Positions 1 to 64,000 of a stretch of DNA of 64,000 nucleotides are shown in pieces. Position numbers and translations under genes: made by a program. Under the pieces are notes generated by a model. The model ran no database searches and was not told the DNA's origin. It was given only the letters and a program-made list of their open reading frames with translations. The first letter of the stretch is position 1; every line of letters begins with the position of its first letter. This stretch comes from an uncultured Verrucomicrobiae bacterium (lineage in GTDB: Bacteria; Verrucomicrobiota; Verrucomicrobiia; Chthoniobacterales; UBA10450), in contig CAVWPA010000002.1 in the NCBI GenBank assembly GCA_963756875.1, positions 96,001-160,000 of the forward strand, read 5' to 3'.

Positions 1-419
1 TTCACATCCTTGATCGCTACGAAGCGGGCATCGAGCTGAAGGGCAGCGAGGTAAAGTCAATCCGGGCCGGCAAAGCCAACATCGGCGATGCATTCGCGCG
101 CATCGAGAACGGCGAGGCCTTTCTATACAACGCCGATATCCAGCCATACGAAAAAGCCAGCATCGAGATCCCTCCTGCCAAACGTGTCCGCAAATTGTTG
201 TTGCACCGGCAGGAAATCGACAAGCTTTACGGCGAAACGCAGGTTGCAGGACGCGCCCTGGTTGTCCTGAAGCTTTACTGGAAAAACGGGAAACTCAAAG
301 CCGAGCTCGGCGTTGGGCAAGGCAAGGTTGCGCGCGACAAGCGCGCGGACTTGAAAAAGCGCACTGTCGATCGCGAGACCGCCCGCGAGGTCGCGCGTTT
401 CAACCGCCGTCATTCTTAA
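1..419 (+). CDS. smpB: SsrA-binding protein (5' truncated by window edge)
   Basis: Frame from base 3 reads HILDRYEAGIELKGSEVKSIRAGKANI...RKLLLHRQEI...GKVARDKR, the SmpB signature. Confidence 0.95.
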   Translation, partial: HILDRYEAGIELKGSEVKSIRAGKANIGDAFARIENGEAFLYNADIQPYEKASIEIPPAKRVRKLLLHRQEIDKLYGETQVAGRALVVLKLYWKNGKLKAELGVGQGKVARDKRADLKKRTVDRETAREVARFNRRHS

Positions 420-546: not shown

Positions 547-1425
547 ATGCCAGTCTTTTCGTTGGAGGACAAGGTCGCCCTGATCACCGGCGGCTCGCGT
601 GGTCTGGGCCTGGTCATCGCGCGAGAACTGTGTCGTGCGCAGGCAAAAGTTGCGCTCCTTGCACGCGATCCGGAAGAGCTGGCGCGCGCAAAGGCCGATC
701 TGGCTGGGAACGGCAGCGAAGTGCTGACGGTCCAATGCGATCTGCTCGATCGGGCTCAAATTGAATCGGCTGTTCGCCAAACTCTCGATCGATTCGGCGC
801 GATCGATATTCTGATTAACAACGCCGGAGTCATTGTAGTCGGCCCGCTTGAGCATATGACTCGCGAAGATTTCGAGCGCAGCATGGGGGTGCATTTTTGG
901 GCTCCGTTCGAATTGACGATGCAAATTGTTCCTGAAATGCGGCGTCGCGGCGGCGGTCGCATTGTTAATATTTCCTCAGTGGGCGGCAGGGTGGCTATCC
1001 CGCACATGGCGCCCTATGCAGCGAGCAAGTTCGCGTTAACAGGTTTCTCCGATGCGACTCGTGCCGAACTCGCCCGCCATAATATCCATGTCACCACCGT
1101 CACGCCGGGAATGATGAGGAGCGGCTCGCAGGTCCATGCGAAGTTCAAAGGTGCTCACCGTGCGGAATTCAATTGGTTCGAGTTGTCGACCAAACTTCCG
1201 CTGGCTTCCATTTCCGCCGAGCGTGCCGCCCGAAAGATTCTCGTTGCGTGCCGGCGAGGCCAGCCTGCGCTCATCATGCCGTGGCCAACGCGTTTGATCA
1301 TCGCGGCCAATTCGCTTTTTCCGGGTTTGACCGGCTACGCAATGAAAATCGTTAACCGATTCCTGCCCGCACCGACGGGCAAGGACGGCGACAAATCGAA
1401 GTCCGGTTCCGAAGTCCAAGGTTAA
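547..1425 (+). CDS. Short-chain dehydrogenase/reductase
   Basis: TGGSRGLG, NNAG and YAASK motifs. Confidence 0.93.
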   Translation: MPVFSLEDKVALITGGSRGLGLVIARELCRAQAKVALLARDPEELARAKADLAGNGSEVLTVQCDLLDRAQIESAVRQTLDRFGAIDILINNAGVIVVGPLEHMTREDFERSMGVHFWAPFELTMQIVPEMRRRGGGRIVNISSVGGRVAIPHMAPYAASKFALTGFSDATRAELARHNIHVTTVTPGMMRSGSQVHAKFKGAHRAEFNWFELSTKLPLASISAERAARKILVACRRGQPALIMPWPTRLIIAANSLFPGLTGYAMKIVNRFLPAPTGKDGDKSKSGSEVQG

Positions 1426-6646: not shown

Positions 6647-8110
6647 TCACTCCGGTTTCAGCAACAGCGTCAGTTCGACCCATTTGCCTTTCGGGATATT
6701 AAATCCGCGCGTTGAAAATGTTTTCCAGTTCGCCGGCGGGTCTGGAAACAGCTCTCGTTCGCGATCCGTCGGCATGATGACGAACCGTGGGCCCGGTCGC
6801 TCCATGAAACCGACTGTCCTGCGTGGATTGGGCGTGGTCATGAATCCGCGAATCCGGGAACGAAAATACCAGACCAAACTCGGCTCTGTGAAATCGGCGG
6901 CCGCGAATTCCATTGGGGCCAGCAACTGGGACCTCGCCTGTTGGTAAAGTTGCCATGAAGGGAAGAAACGGGCGGTAGCCGGCGCGACCAGCAGGGAGAT
7001 TCCAAGACAAAATGCGGCCATGCCGACGGCGAATTTCTTCAGCAGCGAAATCGAAAGTTCGCTGCGAATCCAGCTTCGTGTGAAGAGAAGCGCCAGCATT
7101 GGAAATGCGGGGAGCGTGTAATGCGGCAGTTTCGTTTTTACGAACGTAAAAATGAGGAAAATAATGGCCACGCGCCAGAGCAGGTAGGTATCGATGTGGT
7201 CGTGGTCTCGCCAAAGCGTTTTGGTCAGCCAGGGAAGTTTGATGGACCAGGGAAAAAAACTAAAAAACACCAGGACGAAGTAGTACGGAAGCATGAGCAG
7301 ATAGACGCCTAACGAGTTAGCACCGTGACCTTCCATCGCGCCAAACGAACGCTTGATGACGTGTCGCCCGATCCCGATCCTGAGAAACTCACCATGTGTT
7401 TGAACGAGCGCCGGAACTCCCCAAAGGGCGACGATGCCCAACATCAGCAGAATCCCGGAAACAAACTTGAAGCGATGGCTGAGCGGAAAACGTGGGCGAA
7501 AAAGTTTGGTCGATTCAGCGGTCAGTAACGGCGTCCATCCAATCGGCCCTTTCGCCAGGAATGCAAAAGCGAGCCCGAGATAGAAGGTCCACCACCAATA
7601 GGGCGATGGTTTCGACATTGAGCTCTGCGCGGCAGCAGTTTTTCCCAATCCCACCAGTTCGTGCCCGGCCCAGAACGCCAGCGTAACGAAGAGAACCAGC
7701 CACATGTCCGCCACCGCGGCCTTTGCGTGCACGAATGTTTGCAACGACAAGCTGAATATGATGGCCGCCCACCAGCCGAGTTTTGGACCGTCAATGCGCG
7801 ATCCCCATGCGAAAATCGCGAGAGCGATTAGAGCAGCCGCAATGGCCGATGGAAAACGGGCGGCGAAATCGTTTTGGCCAAAAATTTTGTAACTGACAAT
7901 CTGGGCCCAATAGGTGAAGGGCGGTTTATCGAGGCGAAAATGGTTGTTGAAGTAGGGAACGACGTAATTGCCGCGCTGGATCATTTCGCGTGACGCTTCC
8001 GAGAAGCGCGGCTCATCGCGATCGATCAACGGCAGGCTCCAGGTGCCGGCCATGTGGAACAACACACAGCCGATAAACAAAATTGCGTAATTGCGGGCTT
8101 CGGATTTCAA
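6647..8110 (-). CDS. ArnT-family (GT-C) glycosyltransferase
   Basis: DRDEPRFSEASREM, DKPP, LAKGP, FFPWS and TKLPHY motifs; start (TTG) uncertain. Confidence 0.9.
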   Translation of the reverse strand: MKSEARNYAILFIGCVLFHMAGTWSLPLIDRDEPRFSEASREMIQRGNYVVPYFNNHFRLDKPPFTYWAQIVSYKIFGQNDFAARFPSAIAAALIALAIFAWGSRIDGPKLGWWAAIIFSLSLQTFVHAKAAVADMWLVLFVTLAFWAGHELVGLGKTAAAQSSMSKPSPYWWWTFYLGLAFAFLAKGPIGWTPLLTAESTKLFRPRFPLSHRFKFVSGILLMLGIVALWGVPALVQTHGEFLRIGIGRHVIKRSFGAMEGHGANSLGVYLLMLPYYFVLVFFSFFPWSIKLPWLTKTLWRDHDHIDTYLLWRVAIIFLIFTFVKTKLPHYTLPAFPMLALLFTRSWIRSELSISLLKKFAVGMAAFCLGISLLVAPATARFFPSWQLYQQARSQLLAPMEFAAADFTEPSLVWYFRSRIRGFMTTPNPRRTVGFMERPGPRFVIMPTDRERELFPDPPANWKTFSTRGFNIPKGKWVELTLLLKPE

Positions 8111-8112
8111 AT

Positions 8113-8393
8113 TAGTGTTGTGTAACCGGTATGGCTTGGCAATCGCCGCGAGGAGTTTGGACGAATTTCAAGAAGTGAGCGAAGCGCTGCCCCGAAAGCG
8201 TTCGGGGCTGGCCGAGCAAGCGACGCGGAAATTCGCTCAAAAAACTGCGGCCCGGAGGGTTGAGTTGAAAATGGCCCGGCGCCGGCGTTGCTCCTCGCTC
8301 ACAGGTCGCAGAGGACATGCTCCCTCGTCGCGCCTTGGCGGCGGGCCATTTTGAATTCAACGATTGGCAAGCCATACCGGTTACACAACACTA
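8113..8393. mobile_element. MITE-like element, 281 bp, 33-bp terminal inverted repeats, TA at both ends
   Basis: TAGTGTTGTGTAACCGGTATGGCTTGGCAATCG vs reverse complement of 8361-8393: 32/33 identical; no transposase. Confidence 0.85.
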
Positions 8394-8439
8394 GCGATTG
8401 CAAAATAGCGCCCGAAGGCAGACAACGGGAATCTTATTC

Positions 8440-9060
8440 GTGAACCGAAAGACCGCTTTTTACTGGATCGCTGGAATTCTGATCGCGACGCTCGCCATCA
8501 TCGCGGCTTTTCATTTCGACGTGGCGGCGGAAAATTTCATGAAAGGACATCAAAACCGGGCGGTGCGGCATTTTATGCACAATGTAAGCCGGCTCGGTGA
8601 TTGGCCCCTGCACTTTGCGCTGGGGTTGGCGCTCGCTGCGATCGCATGGTGGCGGGGAAGCAAAAAATGGACGCGCATCTTTTTGGCGATGCTGATCGCT
8701 CTAGCGATTGCCGGCGTCGTTGGGCACGGCATCAAAATCGCGACCGGGCGCGCCCGTCCGTCGGTAAAAATGGAACAGGGTTGGAACGGCCCGAGTCTGA
8801 GCTCGAAGTATCATGCGTTTCCCTCCGGGCACGTGGCGGCTTCGACTGCGTTCTTTGCCGTTCTCCTTCTGGCCAATTGGCGAATCGGGCTTTTCTGTTT
8901 GCCGATTCCAGCCTTGATCGGCTTCGCCCGGATGTACATCTTCGCGCACTATCTGTCCGACGTCGTTTGCGCGGCAGTCCTTGGCGTCCTCTGCGCCCTG
9001 CTGGTCGCGCATTTTCTTCTTCCACCAATCCGCAATTCGCAATTGATTCGGCGGGAGTGA
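8440..9060 (+). CDS. PAP2-family membrane phosphatase
   Basis: KxxxGRARP, FPSGH and RxxxxAHYLSDV motifs; GTG start assumed. Confidence 0.9.
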   Translation: MNRKTAFYWIAGILIATLAIIAAFHFDVAAENFMKGHQNRAVRHFMHNVSRLGDWPLHFALGLALAAIAWWRGSKKWTRIFLAMLIALAIAGVVGHGIKIATGRARPSVKMEQGWNGPSLSSKYHAFPSGHVAASTAFFAVLLLANWRIGLFCLPIPALIGFARMYIFAHYLSDVVCAAVLGVLCALLVAHFLLPPIRNSQLIRRE

Positions 9061-40740: not shown

Positions 40741-40815
40741 CTGTAGCCACCGGCCTATGGCCGGTCGGACAACCAAAAACCAAGAGCTCGACGGCTCACA
40801 GAGCCGTGGCTACAG
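40741..40815. repeat. REP doublet (REPIN) left of RAYT
   Basis: CTGTAGCCACCGGCCTATGGCCGGTC...GACGGCTCACAGAGCCGTGGCTACAG. Confidence 0.9.
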
Positions 40816-40836
40816 ATTGAATGAGAATATTTTCTT

Positions 40837-41307
40837 GTGACACAGCGCTTTCAGCGGCGGCCTTTACGTCTCCATCGAGTTTTTGACGCGAGCCCACTTT
40901 ACTTCGTTACCTTTTGCACGCATCGCCGAAAGCCATGTCTGGCCCGCGCTGACGTTCACACGGTTTTCATTCGCTTTGGCGAGCGTGCGGAGAGCGAATT
41001 TAATATCGCGATTGGCCGATACGTGATAATGCCCGACCACATTCATCTCTTCGTCCGCGGAGGCCCGACTTTTGTCCTGGGTCTTTGGGTGGGCACGCTC
41101 AAGCAATCGCTGGCCAAAGTGCCCAACTTCTCAAAGGTGGGCGAACAAGTTTGGAAAGAGGGATTCTTCGATCACGTCTTGCGGAACGATGAGAGTTATG
41201 CACAGAAATGGAATTACGTTCGGGAGAATCCCGTGCGGGCTGGATTTGTAGAAACGGCCGAAGACTGGCCCTTTCAGGGAGAAATCGTTTACATCGATCG
41301 CGCGTGA
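40837..41307 (+). mobile_element. REP-associated tyrosine transposase (RAYT, HUH/Y1 family)
   Basis: YFVTFCT..R, MPDHIH (HUH), WKEGFFDHVLR, YVRENPVRAG; flanked by matching REP doublets. Confidence 0.92.
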
Positions 41308-41320
41308 CGATGCTTTGCAA

Positions 41321-41407
41321 GCTGTAGCCACCGGGCCTATGGCCGGTCAGATCCGAGGCTTGAAAACACAACCGCCAGGGGACGGCTCACAAAGCCGTGG
41401 CTACAGC
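41321..41407. repeat. REP doublet (REPIN) right of RAYT
   Basis: GCTGTAGCCACCGGGCCTATGGCCGGTC...GACGGCTCACAAAGCCGTGGCTACAGC; direct repeat of the left one with a different spacer. Confidence 0.9.
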
Positions 41408-56844: not shown

Positions 56845-58927
<2,083 letters not shown>

Positions 58928-59025
58928 TGCGCATGTCCATGAATACGGCTTTGAGCGGGAGCGGCCGGATAGATGACATCAAAAGTCACCCGCAGGGCGA
59001 GCGTCGCGGGGAGACAAAGCTCGTC

Positions 59026-59157
59026 AAGATCACGGAGGACGTGAGGAAATACGCAGCCGAACAAGGCTTGTCCGAGGAAGAGGCATTAAAAGCAGGCATG
59101 GAACAGAAATCTCGGGAATTCGTAAGTGCCGGCGCCAAGGTCTACGCAAAAACCTAA
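59026..59157 (+). pseudogene. Diverged duplicate of the thiC 3' end (within ORF 58924-59157)
   Basis: [32 protein letters not shown].. vs Thi[33 protein letters not shown].. Confidence 0.85.
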
Positions 59158-59313: not shown

Positions 59314-59924
59314 ATGACACGCAAACTACTTCTTTGGGCGCTGATCGCGGTCCCCATCTGTTATTACTTTGGGCTAATCGTTGGTGCGGCGACTTATCCC
59401 GGTTACAGCCACATCACCCGTTATGCGAGTGAGCTCGGCGCTGCCGGCGCGCCATATCCGGCACTGTTCAATGTCTCGATTATGATCGGCGGCGCGTTAG
59501 CCGTACTTGCATCGATCGGTCTCGCGATTGCGCTTCACGATCAAGTGACGGCGGCGGCTGGCTATGGGCCGTTCTGGCTGGAGTCGCTCTGGCCTGCTGG
59601 GGCGCCTCCATGGTAATGGGCGGAATGTTTCCGATGCCCGACCCGCGTCACGGCGGGCTTGGGCTCGGTCTTTCGGCACCTCTTGTGCCGTTGTTCGCGT
59701 TGCTGGCAATTCGAAAACTTCCGAACGCGACCGGAATGAAGCTCTTTCTCGCCTTTATCTTTCTCGGGTCGTTGATCGTGCTGGCGATCATGTTCGGCGT
59801 GGGACACCTGGTCACGCGTCACAACGTCGGAATTTGGCAGCGGATCAACTCCGGAATCTCCATTCCCTGGTTCGCGGTGCTCGGGTGTTGGCTGCTCACT
59901 CGCGCGCGAAAGAAATGGGTGTAG
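59314..59924 (+). CDS. DUF998-like membrane protein; apparent frameshift near 59550
   Basis: YPGYSHITRYASELGA, GMFPMPDPRH and GIWQR; ORFs 59314-59616 and 59610-59924 join. Confidence 0.7.
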
Positions 59925-60772: not shown

Positions 60773-60879
60773 CGAATGGCAAGATCCCCAGGTTCACAAA
60801 GGCCGAATTCGATGCGATGAAAAAAAGGAAAAGAAGAAATGAATTTGGAGCAATCTTCTCGATGCCTCTCGCGTCCTCC

Positions 60880-60905
60880 AAATGTCAAAAATATAGATGC
60901 GACCC
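60880..60905 (+). repeat. Conserved 26-bp junction site, copy 1
   Basis: AAATGTCAAAAATATAGATGCGACCC, identical to 63112-63137. Confidence 0.9.
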
Positions 60906-60964
60906 CATTATTTTCCATTTTCCTAACGACCTGATGTCAGGAGAGGGGACCGATTATCGAAGAG

Positions 60965-61348
60965 ATGGACGAGCATAATATTCGCGCGGCGATAGATCGA
61001 CATTGGGCCGCCTCCGCCGCGGGCGATCAAGTGGGCGAACACGAAATCTATCACGATGACGTTGTCTGCGAGTACCCACAGTCAGGCGAGATAATTTATG
61101 GTCGCCAAAATCTGCAGGCGTTGCGTAGCCACCACCCTGATAAGCCATCTGAGTTTACCGTCAGGCGGATCGTAGGAGAAGGTAAGCTCTGGGTTAGCGA
61201 GTACGTGATTAACTACGGCGGCAAACGTCTCTTTACCGTGAGTGTCATGGAGTTTCGAGACGGAAGAGTGTCGCACGAGACACAATATTTCGCCGATTCA
61301 TTTGATGCTCCTGCCTGGCGCGCCCAATGGGTCGGGCGCGCGCTATGA
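60965..61348 (+). CDS. SnoaL/NTF2-like protein
   Basis: IYHDDVVCEYPQSGE, VMEFRDGRVSHETQYF and APAWRAQW. Confidence 0.88.
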   Translation: MDEHNIRAAIDRHWAASAAGDQVGEHEIYHDDVVCEYPQSGEIIYGRQNLQALRSHHPDKPSEFTVRRIVGEGKLWVSEYVINYGGKRLFTVSVMEFRDGRVSHETQYFADSFDAPAWRAQWVGRAL

Positions 61349-61515
61349 TTCACCGAGACATTCCCGCAATGCTAGGACCGACGAGCGATGAGCGGAGGCG
61401 AACCGGTTCGCGGCTTCCTGCAGCACAGTTGTAACTTTACTTTCCTGCCAAGGTCTGAATAATTTACTCAGCGCGAGGTTCGTCAGGCGTCTCCGCAAAT
61501 CACTCCGCTAATTCG

Positions 61516-62244
61516 ATGGATCACAACCGGAAGACAGTGATAGTTACGGGAGCGTCGCAAGGTATCGGTGCCGGCATCGCCCAGGCATTTCTCGCCCGCG
61601 GCTACGATGTGGTAGCAACCGCGCGAAGCGCGACGAAATCCAAGGAACTTTCAGCTTCCGACCATCTCGCACTGGTCGACGGCGACATCGGTCAATTTGA
61701 GACGGCGCAGAAAGTGGCCGAACTCGCGACCAGTAAGTTCGGCTCGATCGATGCCGTGGTCGCGAACGCCGGCATCTTCATAGTGAAGCCGTTCACGGAA
61801 TACACAGCGGACGACTTTCGCGCCCTCGTCTCGACCAACCTTGCAGGCTTCGTTTACATCACGCAGCTGGCGGTTAAACAGATGCAGGCGCAGAAGAGAG
61901 GCGGCAGCATCGTGAGCATCACCGCCGCGTTGGTGGACAATCCAATTGTCGGCGAGCCGGCTTCCGTGGCCATGATCACTAAGGGTGGCCTGAACGCGGT
62001 GGTGAGAAGTTTGGCTTTGGAATACGCGAAAGAGCGTATTCGATTCAACGCCGTCGCGCCGGGCGTCGTCGACACCCCGCTGCACGCCGATGCTCCGAAG
62101 GACTCGCTGAAAAGAGCTTCGCCGATGGGCTCAATCACGACGGTGGAAGACATCGCCAGCGCGGTCGTTTATCTGACAGAAGCTCGTCAAATCACAGGAG
62201 AGGTGTTGCACGTCGACGGTGGTGCGCACATTGGCAAATGGTAG
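61516..62244 (+). CDS. Short-chain dehydrogenase/reductase
   Basis: TGASQGIG, ANAG, NAVAPG and ITGEVLHVDGG. Confidence 0.92.
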   Translation: MDHNRKTVIVTGASQGIGAGIAQAFLARGYDVVATARSATKSKELSASDHLALVDGDIGQFETAQKVAELATSKFGSIDAVVANAGIFIVKPFTEYTADDFRALVSTNLAGFVYITQLAVKQMQAQKRGGSIVSITAALVDNPIVGEPASVAMITKGGLNAVVRSLALEYAKERIRFNAVAPGVVDTPLHADAPKDSLKRASPMGSITTVEDIASAVVYLTEARQITGEVLHVDGGAHIGKW

Positions 62245-62330
62245 AAAATTCCAATTCGACCGGCGCCGAGCAGCGTTTGCGGGAACTCGCCATCAAACTT
62301 CCGGAGGGAAAAAAATGCGGTCGCGTCTAA
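62238..62330 (+). pseudogene. Truncated RidA-like (YjgF family) N-terminus
   Basis: ATG overlaps the SDR end; MVENSNSTGAEQRLRELAIKLP resembles RidA N-termini, then runs into the inverted junction site and stops. Confidence 0.55.
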
Positions 62331-62342
62331 ATATTTGACATT
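62318..62342 (-). repeat. Conserved junction site, inverted copy
   Basis: Reverse complement AATGTCAAATATTTAGACGCGACCG, 21/25 identical to copies 1 and 3. Confidence 0.85.
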
Positions 62343-62461
62343 CGCGCGAGCTAAGGCCACGCAGTTCTTGGTTAATTGTTATTCGTCGGCGACGAAGCCC
62401 GGAGCATGGTGATTGCGATAACCATTGGCAGGAAGCGGGCGGATGGACATAAAGTAAGTGC

Positions 62462-63037
62462 ATGAGCAAGGCTGGTAGCGAAAAGCAGAAGCTGTCGGCG
62501 GAACAGCGTGACGAATTATTAAAGACCGTGAAGGCCCGTTTCGAAAAGAACATGAGCCGCCATAAAGGGGTCGAGTGGGCCAAAGTAGAAGCCAGGCTAA
62601 AGGCTAATGCCGACAAACTCTGGTCACTCCATGAGATGGAAAGAACCGGCGGTGAACCGGATGTGGTGGGTCAGGATAAGAAGACGGGCGAATACGTCTT
62701 CTTCGACTGTTCAGCACAAACTCCCGGTGACCGGGTAAGCCTTTGCTACGACGATGAGGCGCTGGCGGCGAGGAAAGAGCACAAGCCCAAAGGTAGCGCT
62801 GTCGGCATGGCCGCGGCCATGGGTGTTGAACTCCTGACTGAGGAGCAATATTTCGAGCTGCAGAAGCTGGGAGAATTCGATACGAAAAGATCGAGCTGGA
62901 TCAAGACGCCTGCGGAGATCAGAAAGCTCGGCGGTGCGCTTTATTGTGATCGCCGCTACGGCCGCGTCTTCGTGGGGCACAACGGCGCGGACTCCTACTA
63001 TAGCGGCCGGGCTTTCCGTGGCTCGCTCAGGGTCTGA
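62462..63037 (+). CDS. DUF4256-family protein
   Basis: RFEKNMSRH, MERTGGEPDVV, SLCYD and HNGADSYY..RAFRG. Confidence 0.85.
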   Translation: MSKAGSEKQKLSAEQRDELLKTVKARFEKNMSRHKGVEWAKVEARLKANADKLWSLHEMERTGGEPDVVGQDKKTGEYVFFDCSAQTPGDRVSLCYDDEALAARKEHKPKGSAVGMAAAMGVELLTEEQYFELQKLGEFDTKRSSWIKTPAEIRKLGGALYCDRRYGRVFVGHNGADSYYSGRAFRGSLRV

Positions 63038-63111
63038 CTTTTCGCGGGTCGCGAATCGAATTCAAAGAAATGAATTTTGAGCGGCTCCCTCGACGGTCCT
63101 CGGAGTCATGG

Positions 63112-63137
63112 AAATGTCAAAAATATAGATGCGACCC
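63112..63137 (+). repeat. Conserved 26-bp junction site, copy 3
   Basis: Identical to 60880-60905; weaker similarity extends about 45 bp upstream (AGAAATGAATTT.GAGC...TCGA). Confidence 0.9.
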
Positions 63138-63215: not shown

Positions 63216-64000
63216 ATGTTGTCAAACAGCGGCAGAGTGCTTCTCGAAGATCAAAGAGTGGATCAGGACCTCGTAGATGCTAAGTTCTGCAATCACCAGC
63301 TTGTTCGACTGGTCGCGAAGAAACATCGATTTAAGGAGGTTGACTTCAGATATTCGACATTCGACGCCTGTTATCTTCGAAAGTGTGCGTTTGAGTCGTG
63401 CGACTTTACGGGTTGCCGCTTCGTCGCCAGCAACTTTTATGGGTCAACATTTGAAGGATGCATCTTTGATTATGCGATATTCGAGAGAACCATAATAGCT
63501 AGCGACCTTCTCCTAACATGCTGCCCCGCGCACGAGAATTTGAAAATGAGTTTCGCTCGGACGTTGCGTACAGTTCTGAACAACTTGGCGACGCTCATGC
63601 CACGAACGTGGCAATTAAAATTGAACTGGAGGCTACCGAGGAACATCTATACAAGGCATGGCATTCGAAAGATTACTATTATCGGTCGAAATATCCGAAG
63701 TGGAAGCGAGCCGTTGCGTTCTGGAATTGGCTCAAGTTCAAATTTCTAGATTGGATTTGGGGGAACGGCGAAAGCGCGCTAAAGCTCTTGTATGCGGTTC
63801 TCGCCGTACTCGCGCTAATAGCGGTACGCGATGTTTTTCTGCGCCGGGACCCATCGCAACTTCTTGATTATTTCGCCGCGGCTGTCGACGCGCCGCAGAT
63901 ATTTCTCGGAACGCTTGTGCCTTCGGGCTACTCCGCTGGATATCTAGCTGTTATCGTTTTTTTCAGATTGGTGGCTTTCGCGTTCTTGATGTCTATCGTT
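63216..64000 (+). CDS. Pentapeptide-repeat protein with C-terminal membrane domain; two apparent frameshifts; runs off the window
   Basis: F....F.... pentapeptide repeats; shifts near 63573 and 63724 restore ...EQLGD...LDWIWGNGES + TM helices. Confidence 0.7.

Follow-up and report, generated by a model that had tools for sequence, protein, structure and literature searches.

Genes related to the REP-associated tyrosine transposases (RAYTs; REP, repetitive extragenic palindrome) that lie between long flanking terminal inverted repeats (TIRs) were named TIRYTs by Di Nocera et al. 2013 (PMC3733652), and the units formed by gene and repeats were named TIRtrons. According to the text of that paper, many TIRs have a GGGGWSAS motif in common and some extend into the ends of the gene, TIR families are "moderately abundant" with copies found singly, as dimers or in groups, and the presence of the gene and the presence of the repeats are not strictly correlated. 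In the text of Quentin et al. 2018 (PMC6006769), most TIRYTs fall into TnpA_REP subclass 2.1, subclass 2.1.2 has a Bac_DnaA_C-like C-terminus, and no REP-like sequences were found near these genes. Classical REP/RAYT systems and REPINs (REP doublets forming hairpins) have been described by Nunvar 2010 and by Bertels & Rainey 2011. Here we analyze a short repeat in a 64,000-nucleotide (nt) stretch of DNA from an uncultured Verrucomicrobiae bacterium (hereafter the window; positions 96001-160000 of contig C2 in genome G000, an assembly of 2.69 Mb in three contigs that is 87.6% complete) and propose that it is the TIR of a TIRYT unit.

Other mobile systems have to be considered beside these. Insertion sequences of the IS200/IS605 group (IS608-type) encode transposases of about 150 amino acids (aa) and have subterminal hairpins and no terminal inverted repeats. 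Integrons combine IntI and attI with cassettes that are each followed by a hairpin-forming attC site, and Xer/dif-like tyrosine-recombinase core sites delimit the pdif modules of Acinetobacter; such sites are recognized by XerC/D, and the copy on the chromosome is located at the replication terminus. A preliminary description of the window had seen in the repeat, which separates several small genes, the boundary of a cassette system whose sites, placed in alternating orientation, capture, invert or shuffle genes.

An exact 26-mer occurs twice in the window, at 60880-60905 (site A) and 63112-63137 (site C), with 0 expected from 100 shuffles, and an inverted third copy between them (site B; Table 1) matches 21 of the 24 core bases. 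All three copies had been noted in the preliminary description and are real, as is the weaker upstream similarity that it reported for sites A and C. This similarity reaches past the core, with 33 nt around it 91% identical and a nearly identical 18-mer about 28 nt upstream (Table 1), and the duplicated unit therefore measures about 80 bp, not 26. Genome-wide, G000 contains eight copies of this repeat (type 1), two on contig C3 and six on C2, the latter at 156881(+), 158319(-), 159113(+), 162053(-), 162245(-) and 164851(-). These six cluster in an 8-kb stretch downstream of thiC, all of them intergenic; A, B and C lie inside the window, and D and E belong to the same cluster beyond its end. 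The orientation order of the cluster is +,-,+,-,-,-, so that the alternation described earlier does not persist outside the window. Flanking sequences are shared as well, B and E having 43 nt in common at 91% identity (family D1) and D an outer flank in common with the copy at C3:625633; a copy in the related genome G021 (L013) agrees with the A/C sub-variant except at 2 of 24 bases. These shared stretches indicate that units larger than the core were duplicated within this lineage.

Site stretches fold no better than shuffled sequences (z-scores -1.25 to +0.35, with no significant fold in 8/8), which argues for TIRs rather than REPs; a site hairpin was rejected on the same ground. Some copies are partly palindromic (GTCAAAT-6 nt-ATTTGAC), the palindrome arm being the variable part of the site, and there is no covariation between the arms. 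The interior stretch common to A and C showed no similarity to TIRYT genes, and its interpretation as the stump of a transposase gene was dropped. A tiny open reading frame (ORF) across the site, MGSRLNI, was likewise discarded, since its ATG is missing in many copies.

To follow the repeat beyond G000, we searched a degenerate pattern, allowing one mismatch, in 41 related genomes including G000; it matched in 14 of them, and the same pattern read backwards matched in 0. With R1, a sequence-only model built from 37 aligned copies, the motif was found at E ≤ 0.1 in 16 of the 24 further genera of the family to which G000 belongs, with 1 to 30 copies each, and in 3 of 16 genomes from other families of the order. 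The genomes compared are related rather than independent samples, and the assemblies are incomplete; the R1 tallies include genomes flagged as unpublished (G007 and G014), as does the comparison of cluster homology (also G002). No viral contig matched the consensus pattern exactly.

In relatives, the repeat brackets a gene. A Pfam scan of 83 ORFs around the first 25 loci in these genomes gave one telling match, a 325-aa gene on contig C1 of G016 that combines Y1_Tnp (PF01797, 1.4e-11) with Bac_DnaA_C (PF08299, 1.2e-8). The protein contains HFH (HUH) and YIHLNP tyrosine motifs and can be aligned to DnaA domain IV (PDB 1j1v, E 2e-4). The gene lies between site copies at 14-37(-) and 1026-1049(+), which form a perfect inverted pair of 28 nt, and the last five codons of the gene and its stop codon fall within the right-hand site. 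Its closest homologues, on contigs C3 (64% identity) and C1 (59%) of G021, are bracketed alike, with the GGGGTC end outward. Among full-length homologues of at least 53% identity, R1 matched at one or both flanks in 7/7 and at both flanks in 5/7; weaker site flanks surround the gene in G019 and G020, and 16 of the 94 R1 matches at E ≤ 1e-3 lie no more than 200 bp from the gene or its stump. The gene that the site brackets in these relatives, though not in G000, is of the Y1/HUH type, and the earlier suggestion that the sites are recognition ends of such an enzyme gains support through these bracketed genes.

The association of gene and repeat extends to other lineages of the Planctomycetes-Verrucomicrobia-Chlamydiae (PVC) group. 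A locus identical to the G016 gene is present in a public Spartobacteria (Verrucomicrobiota) metagenome-assembled genome record, and homologues of 35-65% identity occur in records of Kiritimatiellia, Lentisphaerae/Victivallales, Opitutaceae and Planctomycetes. Thirteen of 17 full-length homologues from other PVC lineages have flanking inverted repeats of their own of at least 12 nt, with the upstream repeat ending 20-58 nt ahead of the start codon and the downstream one beginning -12 to +88 nt from the stop codon. In 12 of these 13, the repeat begins GGG(G)TCA at the outer end or contains it, and the outer motif in most of the distant PVC homologues is GGGGTCAG or GGGGTCAA. Complete units carry, at their outer ends, a second GACCCC 3-4 nt past the first. 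At the inner end of the left TIR (L064:1-70, L065, L089), TTGACA or TTTACA is located 27-30 nt ahead of the start codon of the transposase gene. In G021:C3, TAGTAT stands 16 nt after this element and 6 nt before the ATG, an arrangement that may be a promoter for a leaderless transcript.

Across the 24 genera, sites and gene occur together in 12 and are both absent from 7; four genera (G006, G010, G015 and G017) have sites and no gene, and G007 has a distant homologue of the gene and no sites. Derivatives of the unit are frequent in relatives. They include nine gene-less doublets with sites 37-272 bp apart, most (-,+) pairs being empty, and, in G008, at least seven copies of a 100-260 bp unit that consists of an end and the gene's 3' stump (80-97% mutual identity), together with doublets of about 300 bp that hold an N-terminal stump. 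A 34-aa N-terminal piece of the gene lies between two sites 171 bp apart in G012, and C-terminal pieces lie beside sites in G008, G009, G023 and G024. The neighbor genes of the sites in relatives are unrelated to each other. One cluster, at G008:C1:730000-797000 (L094-L097), comprises about 18 type-1 sites in 66 kb, including at least seven stump units and doublets resembling miniature inverted-repeat transposable elements; its genes are ordinary and large (porin, TonB receptor, RHS), with some unknown ones among them.

Compared with TIRtrons as the text of PMC3733652 presents them, these units agree in having a Y1/HUH gene between long inverted repeats instead of REP hairpins (seen in G016 and twice in G021), in TIRs that in part overlap gene ends, in the absence of a strict link between gene and repeat, and in dispersed copies that occur as singles, doublets and regional clusters (16/24 sister genera). 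They differ in their host clade, Chthoniobacterales-like Verrucomicrobiota, which that text does not name, and G000 differs further in keeping orphan ends only. The C-terminal helix-turn-helix (HTH), seen as the PF08299 match in G016, is a likeness to subclass 2.1 in the text of PMC6006769, where this domain is Bac_DnaA_C, HTH_23 or HTH_28; long Y1 proteins with a C-terminal Bac_DnaA_C-like HTH recall its subclass 2.1.2, which that study equates with the TIRYTs, except that the genes analyzed here do have clear flanking repeats, and these make up dispersed families. REP/RAYT systems and REPINs, as outlined in the sources named above, likewise have a single-copy Y1 gene between inverted short repeats that are also dispersed intergenically, partly as inverted doublets, and are mostly inherited vertically within a clade. 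Here, however, the repeat lacks a GTAG tag and does not form a significant hairpin, eight copies stand against tens to hundreds, and the G016 protein scores 49.8 bits with the curated RAYT model of NCBIfam (NF047646), below its cut-off of 80. With IS200/IS605, the proteins share the catalytic fold family PF01797 and presumably the single-strand HUH/Tyr chemistry, but they are 325-350 aa long with an HTH and are flanked by true TIRs. The resemblance to integrons and pdif modules is superficial and lies in small accessory genes that are separated by short conserved sites and have no recombinase alongside. A link to IntI or Xer is absent, the partner gene of the site being Y1/HUH; G000 encodes no integrase or other recombinase among the 19 ORFs scanned in C2:155.3-169.3 kb, the sites form no attC hairpin and no regular array, and their orientations are mixed. 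The preliminary description was therefore right that the sites are not attC and that no recombinase is adjacent. A literature search, which did not extend to the figures and supplements of PMC3733652 and PMC6006769, returned no publication that describes this family of repeats in Chthoniobacterales-like bacteria.

We therefore consider it likely, with a probability of about 0.78, that the site is a terminal inverted repeat of a TIRYT unit, or TIRtron, and that the copies in G000 are orphan ends, a class to which the window sites are assigned because G000 lacks the cognate gene. What lies between the sites would therefore be ordinary accessory genes belonging to a variable region rather than cargo that had been captured. 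The gene of a complete unit encodes an IS200-like Y1/HUH nuclease domain with a DnaA-domain-IV-like HTH behind it, and two inverted repeats of about 28-40 bp bracket the gene with their GGGGTC ends outward; the inner end of one repeat is 20-30 bp ahead of the start codon, whereas that of the other overlaps or closely follows the stop codon. A TIRYT family resident in the window's verrucomicrobial family would have left solo ends, short doublets and ends with stumps of 100-260 bp, the gene-less copies concentrating in one variable region of the chromosome. Among the eight putative orphan type-1 ends of G000, A and C would represent right ends with about 50 bp of common interior and B a left end. 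The data show what the site is, its architecture and association with the gene, its distribution, its derivatives and one flush deletion; the mechanism is an inference. By analogy with HUH/Y1 enzymes of the IS200/IS605 and RAYT kind, the enzyme might recognize the repeat, perhaps through binding of the DnaA-like HTH to duplex DNA, and nick the repeat boundary via its catalytic tyrosine (HUH/tyrosine chemistry), copying or moving units or ends. Truncated units and solo ends would be left behind and pile up where insertions are tolerated, and flush deletions, such as the RidA truncation described below, could arise as by-products of boundary nicking. The ends in G000 are probably inert relics.

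Evidence on rearrangements at the sites came from contigs of four sequencing runs, all assembled, that were aligned to the cluster, the best runs sharing only 0.24 of sampled words. Joints whose shorter side measures about 20-23 nt, or for which a side is not listed, are termed weak and, like uncovered parts, were not counted as evidence. A 2300-nt contig of run X1 matches L001:7768-8304, continues with 1455 other letters and then matches 8311-8612; a 426-nt contig of X4, which stems from another study, matches 7936-8304 and diverges at the same base. Position 8304 of L001 (window 62304) marks the end of a RidA fragment (RidA') and the start of the purine-rich tail of site B, and homology with seven relatives ends there too (L001:8290-8305, window 62290-62305). 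Close relatives thus carry 1455 bp that are missing from G000; we read this as a deletion that abuts the outer end of site B and truncates RidA at this point, and it is the one robust hint of activity. RidA' itself, which the preliminary description had listed under this name, is indeed a gene fragment: its 20 aa (62244-62303) are 65% identical to the start of the full-length RidA of G008 (tblastn), the SDR gene before it is 83% identical to the SDR gene of G008, which is followed by a complete 162-aa RidA, and the remainder of RidA was not found anywhere in G000. Three weak joints coincide with TIR ends as well. One (10977->11917; X2 at depth 29, also X4) starts at the inner end of the left TIR of a second repeat type described below, another (10977->[38 nt]->12050) starts at the same end and stops at the outer end of site D, and the third (12000->14847) stops at the outer end of site E. 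Among the 15 joints listed, out of 38 in all, none connects the direct repeats A and C.

Gene content around the sites varies among relatives. G006 is syntenic with G000 (thiC...site(-)...DUF4256...MOSC), its DUF4256 orthologue in this interval being 77% identical, and all other genes of the interval differ. Five metagenome loci have DUF4256 downstream of thiC, separated from it by 0.35-3.1 kb of varying genes and lacking any site, and none of 80 DUF4256 loci (412 kb) contained a site, so that DUF4256 was rejected as a habitual partner of the repeat. The thiC-DUF4256 interval thus varies in site-free loci, so that variability of the region does not depend on the sites. By these loci, the thiC-DUF4256 linkage is ancestral, with DUF4256 at its old place. 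SnoaL and SDR are found at other places and in other order in relatives; L145 has DUF4256 followed by SnoaL without a site, compared with SnoaL-SDR-RidA'-B-DUF4256 in G000. The 123-bp spacer of L145 had seemed to equal "75 + site + tail" of G000, a coincidence, as the spacer contains no site. The 60-nt interior flank of site B precedes DUF4256 in G000 and SnoaL in G021. In G021, homologues of the cluster genes lie scattered across about 70 kb, with similar stretches in G012 and G017, and these are the stretches where the type-1 sites of the three genomes concentrate. As to the expectation that synteny breaks fall at the sites, one robust and a few weak strain-level breakpoints do lie at site ends, but the region varies without sites too; capture, inversion or shuffling of genes by the sites is not supported, given the site-free DUF4256 loci and the site-free thiC-DUF4256 linkage.

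The second repeat type, GGGGTCAGTCAACAAATCTTGA, forms a pair just outside the window, at C2:160956 and C2:161918 (26 nt, 92% complementary). The paired unit spans L001:10956-11939 (C2:160956-161939), lies 956 bp past the window end and has the outer TIR motif GGGGTCAG, which matches GGGGWSAS at 8/8 positions. In G030, G024 and G038, this type-2 TIR flanks TIRYT genes that belong to another clade, and it occurs within about 1 kb of type-1 copies in G000, G012, G019 and G021. The 940-bp interior of the G000 pair contains small ORFs, one of them weakly like DnaJ-like_C11_C; it has no TIRYT similarity (best E-value 0.14) and was rejected as a decayed TIRYT. The weak joints suggest relatives that lack this interior.

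Several observations weigh against the interpretation of the sites as orphan TIRYT ends. G000 lacks a cognate gene or fragment (0 matches at E ≤ 1e-5 to the G016 protein); tblastn with nine family members found weak matches to other short Y1 genes only, and the sole Bac_DnaA_C match is DnaA itself. With no cognate gene in this 87.6%-complete assembly, the link between site and gene rests on relatives, and any enzyme must either work in trans or have been lost. The four other genera with sites and no gene imply that the sites outlast the enzyme or serve the host. The type-1 outer end, GGGGTC[G/A][C/T/A], matches GGGGWSAS at only 6-7 of 8 positions, a hairpin-less site is an odd substrate for a single-strand Y1 enzyme, and the TIRYT class is known from genome surveys alone, the texts of which cite no biochemistry for TIRYTs. 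Moreover, B-DUF4256-C and the type-2 pair present the transposase-bracketing geometry around other genes, with DUF4256 occupying the B-C slot that the transposase gene holds in relatives, and several weak joints begin exactly at TIR ends; plain relics predict neither such joints nor pairs around genes other than a transposase gene.

These last points are what an active exchange would explain, in which pairs of TIRYT ends serve as exchangeable holders and a Y1/HUH enzyme, encoded elsewhere in the genome or population, cuts flush at the TIR ends in trans, so that neighboring or enclosed DNA is excised, inserted or swapped and a shuffled array of small accessory genes builds up downstream of thiC. 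About 1 kb between inner ends would then be swappable and DNA on the outer side deletable, the holders carrying DUF4256 (B-C) and a small unknown gene (type-2 pair). The 1455-bp difference that contigs from two studies place directly at the outer end of site B, the weak joints at the type-2 inner end and at the outer ends of D and E, the two TIR pairs around non-transposase genes, the differing gene order of G000 and L145, and the B flank that precedes different genes in G000 and G021 would all fit, though none of them requires it. We regard such an exchange as unlikely: DUF4256 stands at its ancestral place beside thiC, none of its 80 loci carries a site, the interval varies where sites are absent, the orientations do not alternate, most pairs in relatives enclose no gene, and the genes of the large G008 cluster are ordinary large ones. 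In addition, G000 contains no enzyme, all joints but one are weak, and rare forms would escape contigs.

If the ends were retained by selection after loss of the transposase because they serve the host, for example as a binding site or within a promoter, this would account for the 24-nt core being kept in the 4/24 sister genera with sites and no gene and in G000, and for the site that precedes DUF4256 in both G000 and G006, where the sites are 22/24 identical and the neighboring gene 76% at the nucleotide level. The inner end also contains TTGACA, which in TIRtrons lies 27-30 bp before the start codon. A scan of the sites, however, revealed no consistent promoter-like or terminator-like signal, the next start codon follows at 61, 80, 107 or 120 nt in both orientations, the neighbor genes in relatives are unrelated, and the gene may simply be missed in incomplete assemblies; this explanation appears quite improbable. 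Promoter readings of the sigma-70, extracytoplasmic function (ECF) and Bacteroidetes types were rejected by eye and by scan, as no consistent second element was found. Even less credible is a transcription-factor operator for a regulon of small stress or detoxification genes. The partial palindromes and the intergenic position of all cluster copies would suit an operator, but the same sequence on both sides of a transposase-like gene, overlapping its stop codon, refutes it for practical purposes; distance and orientation to the next gene are not fixed, the neighbors in relatives form no coherent regulon, the palindrome arm varies without covariation, and no regulator gene is adjacent. The lowest probability goes to Xer/dif-like tyrosine-recombinase core sites that delimit modules as in Acinetobacter pdif. 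They would share the inverted arms, one conserved and one variable, with a 6-nt spacer, the several orientations and the lack of an adjacent recombinase. Against this, there are 8-30 copies per genome, eight of them in G000, GC skew does not turn at the cluster, the bracketed gene is Y1/HUH rather than Xer, and viral contigs gave no matches, in agreement with the earlier statement that the sites are not dif.

The genes around sites A to C are those named in the preliminary description, the SnoaL, SDR, DUF4256 and pentapeptide assignments all being confirmed by Pfam (Table 1).

Table 1. Sites and genes of the variable region downstream of thiC (window coordinates)
Feature	Position	Strand	Evidence and remarks
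thiC, conserved left anchor of the variable region	56951..58927	+	ORF; 79-86% nt identity to G006 and metagenome loci
A/C common interior stretch	60834..60851; second copy 63065-63082	+	Family D9; 17/18 identical
Site A, type-1 TIR, right-end orientation	60878..60915, core 60881-60904	+	Exact 26-mer; R1 36.5 bits (C2:156878-156915); GACCCC end faces SnoaL
SnoaL_2	60965-61348	+	Pfam; between outer ends of A and B
SDR	61516-62244	+	Pfam; between outer ends of A and B
RidA', first ~20-24 codons of a RidA/YjgF gene	62244..62304	+	Broken at 62304, where the site B tail begins
Site B, type-1 TIR, left-end orientation	62308..62345, core 62319-62342	-	R1 36.0 bits; GGTC end faces RidA', ACATT end faces DUF4256
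Site B interior flank	62336..62405	+	87% conserved beside a degenerate G021 site (L001:8336-8405 vs L225:905-973)
DUF4256	62462..63037	+	Pfam 1e-85; between inner ends of B and C
Site C, type-1 TIR, right-end orientation	63111..63137	+	Identical to A over 26 nt; R1 28.1 bits, tail off consensus
Pentapeptide gene	from 63216		Pfam

Further irregularities were seen along this region. A 77-aa ORF directly after thiC (58924-59157) repeats the last ~45 ThiC residues and represents a partial duplication of the thiC 3' end; G006 has a similar copy of the thiC end about 1.4 kb downstream of thiC, behind a 388-aa ORF. A DUF998 gene (59314-59924) is broken into two overlapping ORFs, and the pentapeptide/transmembrane gene (63216-64000) lies in two overlapping frames, each frameshift being either a real pseudogene or an assembly indel error. 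Beyond the window end, a DUF1801 gene (L001:13136-13685, C2:163136-163685) has 90-94% nt identity to copies in at least eight other genera, with several copies in some genomes (e.g. G053), and the adjoining genes are only 67-85% identical; by these values, the gene is presumably unusually conserved or recently transferred. Elsewhere in the window, positions 40741-41331 hold a classical RAYT unit, with a 156-aa Y1 gene (40837-41307; PF01797, 1.7e-8; HIH and YVRENP motifs) flanked by GTAG-type palindromes at 40741-40815 and 41318-41331. The 10-mer CTGTAGCCAC has 37 copies in the genome, compared with about 5 expected by rough arithmetic without shuffling.

With this analysis, an apparent recombinase-less cassette array becomes a set of orphan transposon ends among ordinary accessory genes, and a false lead is removed. 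The repeat provides a clean example of a TIRYT repeat family across many genera of soil Verrucomicrobiota. If TIR pairs did act as exchangeable holders, they would constitute an HUH-driven, single-strand equivalent of cassette exchange in integrons, by which the variable region after thiC is assembled. In several genera, the two TIR types are found clustered together in the same variable region, and there is one natural deletion whose edge coincides with a TIR end; defined substrates can thereby be used to test where TIRYT enzymes cleave and whether they are active.

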